From the IMG/VR virus record IMGVR_UViG_3300045988_150450, positions 1-50,933 of that record: 50,933 bases of DNA. One strand, written 5' to 3'. Position numbers: made by a program. Positions 45,001-50,933 of the stretch are shown one piece after another. Origin of the DNA: a virus. Numbering within the stretch: position 1 is the stretch's first letter; each line of letters opens with the position of its first letter.

Positions 45001-48000
45001 AAGAAGACGATGATGAGGAAGAGCCTCCCAAGAAGTCTTCTAAGAAGCCTGCACCAGCTAAGAAGTCTAAGAAGCAGCCTGAACCGGAAGAAGACGAGGA
45101 TGATGAGGACGACGAGGAAGAGGAAGAGAAGCCTGCACCCAAGTCCAAGAAGCCTGATAAGAAAGCCCCTGCAAAGAGCACAAAGAAGACCTCTTCCAAG
45201 AAGAAGTCTGAACCTGAGCCTGAAGAAGACGATGACGATGATGACGACTGGGAAGAGGATGACGATTGACTGAGTCCATATCCATTTGGTAATAACCCTT
45301 TGCCATTTTGAATGGGGGAGGCAAGCCTCCCCCCTCTCAAAGGAGAATTGTCTATGTTGAATAACTATGGAATCCCTGGGGATTCCAAGAAACTGAGAAG
45401 AAAAGTATTCTCTGAATTGATGACTCCTGATCCGGTTACAGGGTATATGGATGGGGAAGATTATCAGCTCATGAGACCTTATGTAAAAGCAAGAAACCTT
45501 GATCTTGAATCTTGTTTGTGGTTAGCTGTTCTTTATGGAATTTCATATTCTTGTACTACAACTATGAGATTCCTTGAGGAATTCCCGGTTATCAGTGCTG
45601 TAAGACCAAAAGCAGTTTCAACCTTTTGGAGAGCCTCAAAAGATACGCTATGGTTTAATCCAGACAAGAAATACCTAAAAAACAACAATCAAGTTATCCC
45701 GGCTATACGATCTATCTACAAACTATCACATGGAAACATGACAGAGTATCTTGAACCTTTGCTTGCTCAAGGTTTTGATACAACATATAAAGAGATCACA
45801 AAGAATTGGAGATTCTTTGGCCCACATGGAGCATATCTTTTCTTTGATGCTCTATATGGTATGCGGCCAGAATTTTATTCTGATCCTACACATATTGATT
45901 GGAAAAATTGCGGACAAACTGTAGTTGAAGGAATGGCACATCTTCTTTGTAATGACGAAGATATTGAGAACAAAGACTATGATTTTGATAGATACAACAA
46001 GATGGTTGATACTTTATCAAGCAAGTTTAGCAAGCCTAAAATTGTAATTGAGTCTAATCTTTGCTTTTTCCGCAAACTTTTTAAGGGATCAAGATATCTT
46101 GGATATTATGCAGATAGGCAATTGGAAGAGTGTTTATCCACAGAAAAAATCCTTTCAAAGTATGGTATCGATATTTGGGATCTGCGAAAAAAGACTGTTC
46201 AGGATAGTTTACGGGGTGAATGTCATGGCTGGAATTCTATTCGCAAAGATCGGTTGAAGCTATTCTTAACTACAGGAGCACTCGAATGAGTAGAGTACTT
46301 GTCAACATCAGAGGATGTAACGGTGCAGGAAAATCCACAATCCCTTTATCCATGCTGGATGATCCAAAGCTGAGTGAGAGTTACATATACTCAAGTGATG
46401 CAAAGCGTATTGCCACAATCACGGTATTTCCTACCTATGGTTGGGTTGCTCTTGGAAAGTACTCTAACAAGTGTGGTGGCCTTGATACGATTAAGAGCAT
46501 AGATATTGTCAAGAGAGCACTTCAGTATGCGTTGATAAGCTTTCCAAAGTATGACATCATCATGGAAGGTATTCTATGTAGTACAACATACTCTAGTTAT
46601 GCGGATATGTATCGCAAAGCAGAAAAGAAGTATTCTGTACAGCCAATCATTCTGTCCCTTATGCCTCCAGTTGAGGTTTGTCTTGCACGTATCCAAAAGA
46701 GAAATGGTGGAAAACCAATCAAAGAAAATCTTGTTGCAGACAAGTGGGGTATGGTTTACCGTAGTCACCAGAAGTTCAAAGCTGCAGGATTCACTACTGT
46801 AAGAGTAAATACAGAAAAGGTTGCAAAAAGCAATATGCAAGCTGCATTCTTCAAAACTATTGAGAAATACAGGAGGGCTTATGACCAAACTTGAAATTCA
46901 CAAAAGATTGTGCAATGAGACGCACAGCTTGTATGAGAAAAAGAACTCTGACTATGGTGATAGCTTTTCTCAGCTTAGAAAAAGATATCCCAACTTTGTG
47001 TGCATGCGACTGTTTGATAAGCTGAACCGGCTGGATACGATCATTCAGCCCGGATATGAGTGCAAGGTTTCTGATGAGAAGATTGAGGACACCCTTATGG
47101 ATATTGCCAACTATGCTCTTATGGAGCTTACCGAACGAAGAGCGGATTCTCCAGTTCATGGAGATATTGACATTTTGAAACCGAAGGAGCATCTGAAAAT
47201 AAAGGCAACCTGCAACTGTACTGAAGAGTCAAGACTTTCACAGCTGAAGATTGCTGGCTATGAGGAGGATCATTAAATGAGGATTGATACCAATTGGCTG
47301 ACTGAAGCTGTGTCCATTATTTCCAATGGTACAGCTGACAGGCTCACAAAAGGAAACATCACTGTATACCGAGTGAAAAACATCATCCGAGTTGATATCA
47401 AGGGGGATAACTAAGATGAGTGTAACAGTATTTCAAGGTGACACTGTCAATGAGGTTTGGGTGAAGGCATATAATGCTCTTGCAGCTATGGCAGAAAACT
47501 GCTTTAAGGATCCGTCTAGAGATGGCCCTGTTGTGGGAGAGATCTGTGACGCAGTGTTTTGTGTAGCTGATCCTACAAAAAACATTGTCACCAGTGAGAT
47601 TCGTAGGATGCCTATGAGATATGCTGTAGGTGAGCTTGCGTGGTATCTTTCTGGATCTAATAGTGTCAAGGACATTGCTCGGTTTGCCAAAAAGTGGGCT
47701 GACCTCTCTGATGACGGAGTGCATAACAACTCTGCATATGGGTATCGTATCTTTTCACAGTTTGGATTTGATCAGTGGTATTACGTGAAGAAGTTGCTGA
47801 TCAGAGATCCCAATACTAGACAGGCCATTATCCATATCAAGGATGCAAACAATCAACCTACCAAAGATGTACCTTGCACGGTCTACCTTCAGTTCTTCAT
47901 TCGTAAAGGTAAGCTGAACCTCTCTGTCCACATGCGTTCCAATGACATCTGGATGGGTGTTCCCTATGATATGTTCAGTTTCTGCTTCTTGCAGATGAAA

Positions 48001-50933
48001 ATGGCTATGGAGCTTGGAGTTGAAATTGGTGAATATACTCACTATGCAGGATCTCTTCACATGTACGAAAGAGATTATCTTGCATCTGAAGAGAACATCA
48101 AAGGGATGACAAGCGGAGACACATGCAATTGTGATGCAGCTTCCAAGTCTGTTTGCAGTTGTCTTGGAGCTGGTACTTGTAACTGAGGTGTGACATGGGA
48201 GGAGATCGTGTAAAAGTTCTGTTCAAAGTTCTTGATGAGAATATTGACAAATTGGTCTGGGAACATGTATGCTATTGTCCTGTGGATGTGTATAAAGAGT
48301 TCTTCAGAAAGACCAAAATCGAGAAGTTTGAGCTTGCAGATTATGCAGTAAAATGGGCAAGGGAGGACTTTTGCATTGATCTCCCTATGTCCACAGTAAA
48401 AGACATAGCAATCCTGAGAGAGCTGGTTTTGGACAAGTACAAAAATGTGTACCCTCACATTGTAACACATCCAGAAAACAAGAAGTTTGATTATCAGGGT
48501 TGGGTAAGAGTTTGGATGACCGAACACATGAAAAAAGAATTGAGGTTTTTGAAGAAATGACAGGAAGTATGAATGATCTGCCTAAAATTGTTGCAGTTGA
48601 TTTTGATGGAACTCTTGTAGAGAGTAAATTTCCAGCCATTGGTGAGCCCATTACAGCTATGATTGATCTCTGTAAACAGCTGAGAAATATGGGTGTGAAG
48701 TTAATTCTTTGGACATGCAGAGATAATGATTCTCCTGAAAAGAGCCTTGATGCAGCTGTAGAATTCTGTGCAGAACAGGGATTGACATTTGATGCTGTAA
48801 ACCGGAATATTCCTGAAGTGATCAGCCTATTCCACAATGATACTCGCAAAGTATATGCGGATCTGTACCTCGATGATAAAGCTACCCCTCCTTGGCAAGA
48901 TCCTGCATACTGGAGCAAGTGTGTTGGTTTGAGCTGGAACTTTGCCAGGAAGGAGCTTATTCATGGGATTTGAGAAGAGTTTTCAAACAGAAGCTTTGAA
49001 GTACCTCAATAGTCTTCCTGGTTGCAGAGCTGAGAACGTATCTGGCAATGCAAAACAATCAGGCAGACCAGATATCAATGGTTGCTACTATGGCCGCATG
49101 TTCAAAATTGAGCTTAAAGTTCCGGACAACAAAAACTCAGCCAGTAAAAAGCAGAACTATGAACTGCAACGCTGGCACAAAGCTGGAGCTGCTGTAGGTG
49201 TAATTTATTCTATGGATACTCTGAAAGATATGATTGGAGCTATGGAATTGTACAGAGGTGTAAGGAATCCTACACGATATGAGATTTGCGAAACAAATGG
49301 GTGTATATCCTGGTACAAGATTTGAATTCAAGACAAAGCCTTGGGCACATCAGCTCAAGGCTCTTGAATATATGTATCCTAGAGATACTGCTGCTCTCTA
49401 TACAAAACCTGGATCTGGTAAGACCAAGATTATGATTGACCTTATCATAAACCGTGGATTCAAAAGAGTATTGGTTGTGGCTCCAAAAAAGCCTTGTGAT
49501 GTATGGCCCCCGCAGATTCAGTTGCATTCTAATCTGATTCAAGACAACATTGTACCCTTACACCATCTATCTGGTAAAGACAAGGCTGAACAGATAAGAC
49601 TGGTTATGCAGGCTCCAAAAGATAAGACCATCATCTTTATATGTAACTATGACTCTGTCTGGAGAGAACCAGTAGACAAGATGTGGTTTTACAAAAAACT
49701 TGGTCTTGACTGTGTAATATGTGATGAGAGTCATCGTATAAAGTCACCATCTAGTAAGTGCTCCAGATTCCTCGGTAAGTTAGGTAAGATAGTCCCACAT
49801 CGCTATCTGTTAACTGGTACACCACTTGCAGAAAACCCTACAGACGTATACGCTCAGTACAGGTTTCTTGATCCAACAATCTATGGAACAAATTACAGGG
49901 CTTTTTGTGATCGATATCAGAACATTGATGCAAACTTGAGTGCCAGAGTGGGATTCCCCATCCTTGACAAGGCAAATCCATATAAAAATCTTGACGAACT
50001 CAAGGAGAAAATGTTTTCTTGTGCGTTTTATATGAGATCAACAGTAAAACTCCCCAAGACTTCCCGTATGGTTGTAAAAATACCCATGGATGAGATATCT
50101 GAGCAAACATATAAGGAGCTGTCCAAGGAAGGTGCAGTTGAGTTTGAAGAAGGATTCATGACTGTAAACAATGCCCTTGCTATGATTATACGCAAGCAGC
50201 AGGTCACGAGTGGTTATCTGCCGATTGAATATGAAGATGGTACATCTGAGCTCAAAAGAATCAGCACCTATCGTCGCACATTCTTGTATAAATTCTTACA
50301 AGGTCTGCCGGAGTCCGAGCCAGTCGTCATCTTTGCTAAGTTTCAAAAGGATCTGTACTCTATTCGGAAAGCTGCAGAAAGACTTGGTTGTGGATATTCT
50401 GAAGTATCTGGTCGGGAGGATTCTCTCAAGGATTGGAAAGCTGGTAAGACCCGAATTCTTGGTGTGCAGTATACAGCTGGATCAGAGAGTATTGACCTGA
50501 CTAGAGCGCATCTGTGTATATTCTACACTCTTGACCATTCTCTGGGGAAATACGAGCAAGCCCGCAAGAGAGTTCATAGACCTGGACAAGAAAGCCCTTG
50601 CATCTATTATCACTTTGTAGCAACAATGTCTTCCGGTCGTACCGTGGATCAAGATATTCTACAATGCTGGAAAGACAAGAAAGACTACATCAATCTAATC
50701 ATGAGAGCTGGTAAAATTTCTTAAAATTTCTTAAAATTTGTGATTTTTCCCTGTTTTTGTGAAATTTCCTTACAAATGCATAGAGAAAAGCTCAGAGCTC
50801 CTTGTAAACTGTGCAGAAATCAGTACTTTTTACAAGAAATTCTGGGCTTTACTTTTGGAAAAGAAAGAAGTATGATATGCTTGTAAGGTTGAGGGAGGTG
50901 AGAAAATGAGTCAGCCCTACAGAAAAGGAAACT

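Follow-up and report, generated by a model that had tools for sequence, protein, structure and literature searches.

A candidate 5-hydroxymethylpyrimidine hypermodification locus with a dCMP-type hydroxymethylase in an uncultivated siphovirus genome

Which pyrimidine would be modified, and from which nucleotide, by the gene cluster at 45354-48186 of the uncultivated phage genome IMGVR_UViG_3300045988_150450? This 51-kb stretch (50,933 nucleotides, analysed as a whole and hereafter called the window) represents an almost complete siphovirus genome, with the terminase, portal, major head, tape measure, tail and endolysin genes on the minus strand and, from ~28 kb onwards, replication and nucleotide-metabolism genes on the plus strand. 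A megablast search with the region as query found no match among 50,697 phage records, so the window does not represent a known isolate. A first-pass annotation had read the cluster as a thymidine-hypermodification core, with a ThyA homologue making 5-hmdUMP and with a P-loop kinase and an upstream transferase acting on the resulting base in DNA. We searched the window proteins with Pfam, PHROG and NCBIfam profiles, deriving activities from homology and gene context, and compared the locus with 21 related loci (17 IMG/VR loci recovered by a primase query plus four obtained through protein look-ups) and with 80 IMG/VR loci fetched with the kinase profile.

The reading that we favor, at about an even chance, sees in this region the central genes of a post-replicative pathway for 5-hydroxymethylpyrimidine hypermodification through a kinase and a transferase. 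Its nucleotide supply would be unusual, with dCMP hydroxymethylated first and then deaminated to a 5-hydroxymethyluracil (hmU, 5hmU) nucleotide. The layout described in the first-pass annotation was recovered in full: five open reading frames (ORFs) on the plus strand (45354-46289, 46286-46894, 46881-47276, 47277-47414 and 47416-48186), the motifs NIRGCNGAGKST, KNSDYGDSF, DVPCT and RSNDIWMGVPYD, and an ATGA at 46286-46289 shared by the transferase stop and the kinase start.

Hydroxymethylase, kinase and transferase-like protein

The gene at 47416-48186 (plus strand) encodes the single ThyA homologue of the window, a 256-residue ThyA-fold pyrimidine hydroxymethylase (Pfam Thymidylat_synt, 90 bits) with a dCMP (cytosine) signature. 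In the numbering of Escherichia coli ThyA, placed by hmmalign, its active-site residues are D143 (L143D), C146, D169 and D177 (N177D). According to the rule set given in PMC13326640, N177D leads to a dCMP substrate, L143D/E to a hydroxymethyl product and D169N to a 5-hydroxy-dCMP synthase; in the parts of PMC13326640 and bioRxiv 10.1101/2024.12.05.627091 that cite Liu and Santi 1992 and related mutagenesis, position 177 is the dUMP/dCMP switch. Asp177 together with 'PCT' after the catalytic Cys is common to the window enzyme, T4 gp42, MilA and VPE25; SPO1 gp29, SP10 gp188 and the enzymes of LysYB1, ViI, an M6-like phage, a PaMx11-like phage and ctfPj964 carry Asn177 and 'PCN', in a loop one residue longer. 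The 80 loci fetched with the kinase profile include 38 of the Asn type and 31 of the Asp type; position 177, the post-Cys residue and the loop length set the window enzyme apart from all 38 Asn-type loci as well as from the seven reference hmU-type enzymes. Asp177 is present in every clade member, and the best PDB sequence match of the window enzyme is MilA, a CMP 5-hydroxymethylase (E 1.4e-29). By its signature the window ThyA homologue is a dCMP-type and not a dUMP-type hydroxymethylase, and the part of the first-pass scheme in which it makes 5-hmdUMP from dUMP is not supported by the residues that it has in common with T4 gp42, MilA and VPE25.

Two other functions were considered for this protein and discarded. 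It is not a canonical thymidylate synthase, in keeping with the hydroxymethylase reading of the first-pass annotation: it scores far below all NCBIfam thymidylate-synthase cut-offs (77.4 vs 327 and 68.4 vs 108) and has Asp both at 143, where L143D marks a hydroxymethylase, and at 177. Nor is it a 5-hydroxy-dCMP synthase of the RB69 gp48 type, as D169 is kept (RSNDI) and D169N is not seen. The protein ends in a Cys-rich C-terminal tail (48118-48186; GDTCNCDAASKSVCSCLGAGTCN) that is missing in L007, L010 and the Agathobaculum phage AB434P2 (L001). The latter is the closest isolate as regards the hydroxymethylase (55% identity, Asp-type); its gene is flanked (L001 769-5582) by genes for a Tmk-like kinase, a choline-kinase-like protein, a cytidylyltransferase-like protein and two unknowns, without a 5-hydroxymethyluracil DNA kinase (5-HMUDK), and may belong to a different, uncharacterised modification cluster.

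The 202-residue P-loop kinase encoded at 46286-46894 (plus strand) is a clear member of the 5-HMUDK family (Pfam PF18748, 94.8 bits, E 6e-27, cut-off 27), in agreement with the first-pass annotation, and its base preference is predicted by homology. Its identity to the SP10 gp186 kinase domain is 41%, to the M6-type kinase 34% and to the gp67-type kinases of ViI-like Kuttervirus 33%, and in an alignment with the SP10, LysYB1, ViI and M6-type kinases residues G10, N12, G13, G15 and K16 of its Walker A motif (GCNGAGKS) are invariant. The gene adjoins that of the transferase-like protein, and the ThyA homologue follows 0.5 kb downstream. In a midpoint-rooted neighbour-joining tree over ~190 columns, the kinases of the 31 Asp-type loci form one clade, which is sister to the SP10/LysYB1 clade. 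Activity on hmU DNA has been demonstrated for the SP10 gp186-, M6- and ViI-type kinases (PMC8989533), and the commercial 5-HMUDK phosphorylates hmU and not 5-hydroxymethylcytosine (hmC, 5hmC) (PMC6457204). A literature search for data on base recognition by these kinases found none.

The upstream gene (45354-46289, plus strand) encodes a 311-residue divergent protein resembling amino-acid:DNA transferases (aGPT-Pplase2/AADT-like). Its score against PF18724 (ADDT, formerly aGPT-Pplase2) is marginal, at 28.9 for a cut-off of 26.2; the corresponding proteins of L027 and L029 score 36.8 and 21.8, and a bona fide M6-type protein 159. The residues E233-S234-N-L-C237 (E-S-x-x-C) are invariant in 20 homologues of 49-77% identity and, with Ser in place of Thr, correspond to E243-T244-x-x-C247 of PaMx11 gp46 (PUGT), which are the metal ligands and the catalytic cysteine of that enzyme (PMC11472151, PMC13458397); in PUGT the metal held by the E-T dyad is bound to O4 of the uracil ring (PMC11472151). 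The Cys and its motif also align with VETVLC of the M6-type AADTs. An AlphaFold2 model (pLDDT 93.4) is all helical, and its top fold matches in the PDB are the PUGT entries 8z2n (8z2n_B) and 8z2m (probability 0.97-0.99, TM 0.48-0.56, weak E of 0.15, 10-11% identity in the fold alignment), followed by HhH glycosylases (AGOG, Ogg). Single-sequence and profile searches of this protein and of the Pplase1 described below against PDB sequences gave nothing meaningful. The fold comparison alone reached PUGT. Since a profile-profile comparison by hhalign was negative, we do not claim close AADT membership. The earlier assignment to the aGPT-Pplase/AADT type nevertheless stands in the form of a weak Pfam membership, backed by the motif around the catalytic Cys, by the predicted fold and by the position next to the kinase. 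We place the protein in a divergent AADT-like subfamily and predict that it is a group transferase acting on a phosphorylated 5-hydroxymethylpyrimidine in DNA.

At E<=1e-3, 402 representatives of this transferase family are found in a set of 1.84 billion clustered proteins. No donor-forming or tailoring genes are encoded in the cassette, and no pyridoxal-phosphate, radical-SAM, flavin adenine dinucleotide or acetyltransferase tailoring genes were found in the window cluster. An exclusive tie of the window-type transferase to Asp-type hydroxymethylases was considered and turned out to be a sampling effect, as LysYB1 and L141 pair it with an Asn-type enzyme.

A two-gene cassette and a second module

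Comparison of close relatives indicates how the locus is built. The transferase and kinase genes make up an optional cassette of 1,532 bp (45336-46867, plus strand), a two-gene addition delimited by its presence and absence. In blastn against the closest relative, L015 (primase 94% identical), window positions 44005-45335 correspond to L015 10198-11535 and window positions 46868-47281 to L015 11536-11951, which places the cassette-free junction at L015 11535/11536. At the left edge of the insertion, 3' of the DUF669 gene, lies a G+C-rich stem-loop (45314-45334, plus strand; GGGGGAGGC-AAG-CCTCCCCC); L015 has a matching G+C-rich inverted repeat at the same place, and its alignment with the window stops at 45335. 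We prefer 45354 as the transferase start over the alternative mechanical ORF start at 45312 because AAGGAG (45340-45345) precedes the former and the stem-loop covers the latter. The cassette is found in L007, L020, L022 and L023 and missing in L015, L017-L019 and L025, all of which keep the Pplase1, TAGT, deaminase, MazG, DUF1599 and Asp-type ThyA genes; in L031 every modification gene is missing, the deaminase included. The order transferase-kinase-DUF1599-ThyA is conserved among related contigs, and transferase and kinase lie within ~1 kb of each other in 30 of the 31 Asp-type IMG/VR loci, a pairing for which chance is excluded as the cause.

Relatives mark the interval between the DUF669 gene and ThyA as a hot spot for alternative candidate modification modules. 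It holds a radical SAM/SPASM gene in L017 (19122-20096), TAGT-like, radical SAM and Tmk-like kinase genes in L026 (15639-18512) and L029 (19581-21930), an Fe-ADH/HAD fusion ahead of the AADT-like and kinase genes in L027 (17668-19296), and SAM methyltransferase and Tmk-like kinase genes in L010 (11532-12818).

Between the kinase and the hydroxymethylase, the gene at 46881-47276 (plus strand) encodes a DUF1599 protein ('nucleotide modification associated domain 1'; all-alpha, MazG-like; phrog_1485), an assignment of the first-pass annotation that PF07659 supports with 37.7 bits. It is presumed to be a dNTP pyrophosphohydrolase feeding the hydroxymethylase. In relatives its gene lies directly upstream of the ThyA homologue, both are lost in L031, and a Tmk-like dNMP kinase takes its place in L010, L026 and L029. 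The 45-residue ORF at 47277-47414 (plus strand) exists as had been described, with no Pfam or PHROG match; since DUF1599 abuts ThyA in relatives, it is probably not a conserved gene. A tblastn search of the 21 related loci gave no match to it, and it overlaps a window-specific 114-bp insertion (47282-47395) that is missing in the closest relative.

A second module (33959-36950) lies ~11 kb upstream of the core locus. The helper genes that had been listed as fitting the thymidine reading were located (deaminase, MazG-like and DUF1599 proteins, HD hydrolase, and HAD protein at 48500-48973); the list had missed an aGPT-Pplase1 and a DNA glycosyltransferase at 33959-35787. The first of these (33959-34966, plus strand) is an aGPT-Pplase of clade 1 (Pfam 'HMUDK_hel', PF18723, 225.8 bits; here Pplase1), a paralogue-class partner of the transferase, in which E307-x3-C311-E312-x2-K315-Y316 is invariant over 15 sequences (M6-like, PaMx11-like, SP10, LysYB1 and 10 clade loci). 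The second (34963-35787, plus strand) is a TET-associated-type glycosyltransferase (TAGT, GT-A; PF20691, 68.2 bits, cut-off 27.5), whose start overlaps the Pplase1 stop by ATGA, which carries the GT-A DxD motif 'MIDDDV' and which matches phrog_842, the glucosyl-HMC glucosyltransferase family. Characterised relatives of TAGT have been described as acting in C5-cytosine hypermodification (PMC8256090). Because relatives without the kinase keep Pplase1 and TAGT, Pplase1 would work without the P-loop kinase. We propose that the two proteins make up a second module of older date, directed at the same hydroxymethyl bases. In IMG/VR loci recovered by a Pplase1 profile (L115-L192), with ThyA types assigned by motif regular expressions, Pplase1 outside the clade lies within 6 kb of an Asn-type hydroxymethylase in 29 loci and of an Asp-type enzyme in none, 20 of the 29 being without a nearby kinase. 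In one such locus, L186, the genes for an Asn-type hydroxymethylase, Pplase1 and TAGT are neighbors, a pointer to possible hmU glycosylation in phages.

The module continues with a dCMP-deaminase-family protein (35965-36447, plus strand; PF00383, 64.7 bits; phrog_174, 8e-35), whose stop overlaps by ATGA with a MazG-like nucleoside triphosphate pyrophosphohydrolase (36444-36950, plus strand; phrog_2245, 6e-14; no Pfam match above threshold). All related loci with Pplase1 or ThyA whose sequence extends over the position of the deaminase have it; it is missing only in L031, and in 27 of 27 clade loci it lies within 2.4 kb after Pplase1. An HD-domain phosphohydrolase (32737-33336, plus strand; phrog_5889, 2.8e-26; phrog_28876 'metal-dependent phosphohydrolase', 3e-19), a possible dNMP/dNTP-depleting helper, is encoded upstream of Pplase1 in most relatives. 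Between the two in the window, 33340-33978 encodes a membrane-anchored protein with a 3D domain (cell-wall-hydrolase-like), without counterpart in the 21 related loci. Elsewhere on the plus-strand half, 30912-31313 encodes a protein homologous to the C-terminal DNA-binding domain of Spo0A (Pfam, 66 bits), which points to a spore-forming Firmicutes host and to possible interference with sporulation control; this homologue and the Agathobaculum phage AB434P2 suggest a host of the Clostridia type. Both a 154-residue protein (41942-42406) and the DUF669 protein (44583-45269) have long C-terminal low-complexity tails with alternating Asp/Glu-rich and Lys-rich stretches.

Nucleotide route and choice of base

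In the proposed route, the MazG-like and DUF1599 pyrophosphohydrolases would supply dCMP, which the ThyA homologue, judging from its three active-site positions, would turn into 5hm-dCMP rather than act on dUMP. The deaminase would then convert part or all of the 5hm-dC nucleotides to 5hm-dU, mirroring the proposed 5m-dC to dT route of phages with 5-methylcytosine (5mC), and the phage polymerase would incorporate 5hmdU and possibly 5hmdC. In DNA, the P-loop kinase would phosphorylate the hydroxymethyl group of hmU, as its homology to validated kinases suggests; Cys237 of the AADT-like protein, by its motif and fold, would attack C6, the phosphate would leave and some amine or alcohol would add to the exocyclic methylene.

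We expect hmU to be the substrate in DNA because the kinase, AADT-like and Pplase1 families all occur elsewhere in the company of Asn-type hydroxymethylases: the kinase in the sister clade of SP10 and LysYB1, the AADT-like protein in LysYB1 and L141, and Pplase1 next to its 29 Asn-type neighbours. The E-S dyad, counterpart of the O4-metal site of PUGT, is kept in the window's own transferase family and lends hmU further support. The commercial 5-HMUDK, which spares hmC (PMC6457204), and the deaminase, tied to Pplase1 in all 27 clade loci and gone from L031 along with the rest of the system, favor hmU as well. As regards deamination, there is a precedent in phage homologues of dCMP deaminase with a preference for 5mC/5hmC nucleotides: they give rise to 5hmdU in vivo, and in phages of the Xp12 type they have been proposed as a source of dTTP from 5m-dCTP (bioRxiv 10.1101/2024.12.05.627091).

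Several observations weigh against the hydroxymethylation-deamination route. Only seven of 90 tested deaminases act on 5hmdC, all of them from 5mC phages (bioRxiv 10.1101/2024.12.05.627091); the window deaminase could merely make dUMP for thymidylate synthesis by the host enzyme, as happens in T4. Relatives have a dNMP kinase adjoining ThyA, and none was found in the window. As to the transferase, the fold-match E-values are weak, hhalign of its family against a thin alignment of M6/PaMx11-type proteins gave no match, and the E-S/T dyad is not universal in the AADT-like family, other branches having lost it. In addition, the Asp-type hydroxymethylase is tied to one monophyletic kinase clade in the midpoint-rooted tree, so a single change of target base fits equally well. 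The proteins of the clade are known from sequence and gene context alone.

Such a change of base is the substance of the alternative that we take most seriously, although we consider it unlikely, in which everything happens on cytosine: 5hmC would replace C as in T4, TAGT would glycosylate some of it, the kinase and the AADT-like protein would have switched to 5hmC, and the deaminase would only feed dUMP. The dCMP signature of the hydroxymethylase in every clade member fits this, as do the separation of the Asp-associated kinases, in one clade, from all Asn-associated ones (in the midpoint-rooted tree), the absence of a profile link between the divergent transferase and the M6-type AADTs, and the C5-cytosine context of the TAGT relatives. 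Cys-C6 chemistry also works on cytosine, as in DNA methyltransferases and dCMP hydroxymethylase, which counts for the same explanation. It would require, however, a joint change of specificity in two enzymes whose families, like that of Pplase1, occur elsewhere with Asn-type hydroxymethylases (LysYB1, L141), and it would leave the tight linkage of deaminase and Pplase1 superfluous; the O4-contacting metal site of PUGT is kept in the window's family, and the 5-HMUDK that has been tested leaves 5hmC untouched (PMC6457204). The scheme of the first-pass annotation taken unchanged, with a dUMP hydroxymethylase despite Asp177, a deaminase feeding dUMP and 5hmdU processed as in SP10, M6 or ViI, has in its favor that the gene set (deaminase, hydroxymethylase, kinase and Pplase pair) is that of the hmU phages in PMC8989533 and that L143D marks hydroxymethylases of both classes; we hold it to be improbable, given that position 177 is an established dUMP/dCMP switch, that the reference hmU-type enzymes and Asn-type loci all differ from the window at the three features described above, and that the nearest solved relative is a cytidylate hydroxymethylase.

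Least probable of all, in our estimation, is a cassette that does not modify bases, its P-loop protein being a dNMP kinase for the hydroxymethylated nucleotide and its helical protein a DNA-glycosylase-like repair or anti-defence factor. Weak Pfam matches of the kinase to dNK and AAA_33, the lack of a detectable separate dNMP kinase in the window and the HhH glycosylases (AGOG, Ogg) that come next to PUGT among the fold matches could be explained in this way. Yet the PF18748 score lies 80 bits above the dNK match, L010 and L029 have a window-type kinase plus a separate Tmk-like kinase, the invariant Cys of the helical protein sits within a PUGT-like motif, and the coupling of both genes, seen in 30 of 31 loci, is as expected for a relay from kinase to transferase.

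The hmU route through deamination and the direct hypermodification of hmC need not exclude each other: the same phage could carry hmC in glycosylated and hmU in hypermodified form. It is tempting to speculate, as a tentative idea that falls somewhat short of an even chance, that the clade hypermodifies both pyrimidines from one hydroxymethylase (5hmC glycosylated by TAGT, and 5hmU modified by the kinase and AADT-like protein, aminoalkylated or alkoxylated), or else that the kinase/transferase pair acts on 5hmC. The non-canonical thymidine of the first-pass annotation may thus be the end product, reached through an extra deamination, or the modified base may be cytosine.

Known systems and significance

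The window system would work like the thymidine hypermodification of SP10, M6, PaMx11 and ViI, with which it has the kinase family in common, and differs in the signature of its hydroxymethylase, its divergent transferase, the absence of tailoring enzymes, the pairing of Pplase1 with TAGT apart from the kinase, and the cassette nature of the kinase and transferase genes. SP10, which makes alpha-glutamylthymidine with the gp186 kinase-Pplase1 fusion and the dUMP hydroxymethylase gp188, has the kinase closest to that of the window (41%, sister clade). SP10 and LysYB1 resemble the window in their kinase and Pplase1 families and in their Firmicutes hosts, and LysYB1 also has a window-type AADT-like domain directly upstream of the kinase; BLASTP and HMM searches found no such domain in SP10 gp185. 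In contrast to the 256-residue Asp177 enzyme of the window, their hydroxymethylases are Asn177 proteins of ~385 residues with a long C-terminal extension; SP10 fuses its kinase to Pplase1, whereas the window Pplase1 is 11 kb away and adjoins the glycosyltransferase; and both are 140-kb myoviruses, compared with a 51-kb siphovirus. In LysYB1 (L002, 8902-12973), a 639-residue protein made of the window-type AADT-like domain and a C-terminal domain common with SP10 gp185 precedes a kinase and a Pplase1 that are encoded as separate proteins.

The Pseudomonas phages M6/YuA and PaMx11, which use a 5-HMUDK and a Pplase2/AADT glycine:DNA transferase (8z2m, 8z2n), have in common with the window the kinase family (34% to the M6-type), the E-(T/S)-x-x-C catalytic/metal motif and the HhH-like fold of the transferase. 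Their mechanism, activation by phosphorylation followed by a Cys-dependent substitution (PMC8989533, PMC11472151, PMC13458397), would apply to the window by analogy. The transferase similarity is barely detectable, though (28.9 vs 159 bits, hhalign negative), and the hydroxymethylases of M6 and PaMx11 are Asn-type and the window cluster is without tailoring genes.

The T4 5hmC pathway (gp42 dCMP hydroxymethylase, dCTPase and glucosyltransferases) resembles the window in D143, D169, D177 and the 'CT' after the catalytic Cys, as well as in the presence of an NTP pyrophosphohydrolase, a dCMP deaminase and a DNA glycosyltransferase; the Enterococcus phage VPE25 has a homologous enzyme (39% identity) adjoining a beta-glucosyltransferase. 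T4-type pathways are, however, without 5-HMUDK and aGPT-Pplase, and the window glycosyltransferase is a TAGT (GT-A) and not an alpha-GT or beta-GT. The 5mC phages of the Xp12 type (mSCD-B5) are alike in having an Asp177 ThyA homologue that acts on dCMP, followed by a deaminase leading to a uracil derivative (bioRxiv 10.1101/2024.12.05.627091), and in them the deaminase gene adjoins a MazG/PRA-PH-like gene near a PolA gene. Their product is dTTP, whereas that of the window would be 5hm-dUTP, and the substrate of the window deaminase is proposed by analogy. A look for sequence determinants of 5hmC selectivity in such deaminases found none, and the preprint calls the trait polyphyletic.

All characterised kinase/transferase pathways start from a dUMP hydroxymethylase, and among the papers searched we found none pairing 5-HMUDK or aGPT-Pplase genes with a dCMP-type enzyme. 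In at least 31 IMG/VR contigs, these post-replicative enzymes go together with a hydroxymethylase of the dCMP type, and the clade members surveyed always have a deaminase with them. This would amount either to a new nucleotide route to 5hmU, by hydroxymethylation and then deamination, or to the first cytosine version of this chemistry; action of the pair on 5hmC, if true, would be the first phospho-activated cytosine hypermodification. The divergent transferase subfamily implies that the adduct may be new, and a portable two-gene cassette of 1.5 kb would be an attractive DNA-labelling tool. For these phages, the locus is a natural hot spot at which glycosyltransferase, radical-SAM, methyltransferase and kinase/transferase modules are exchanged.

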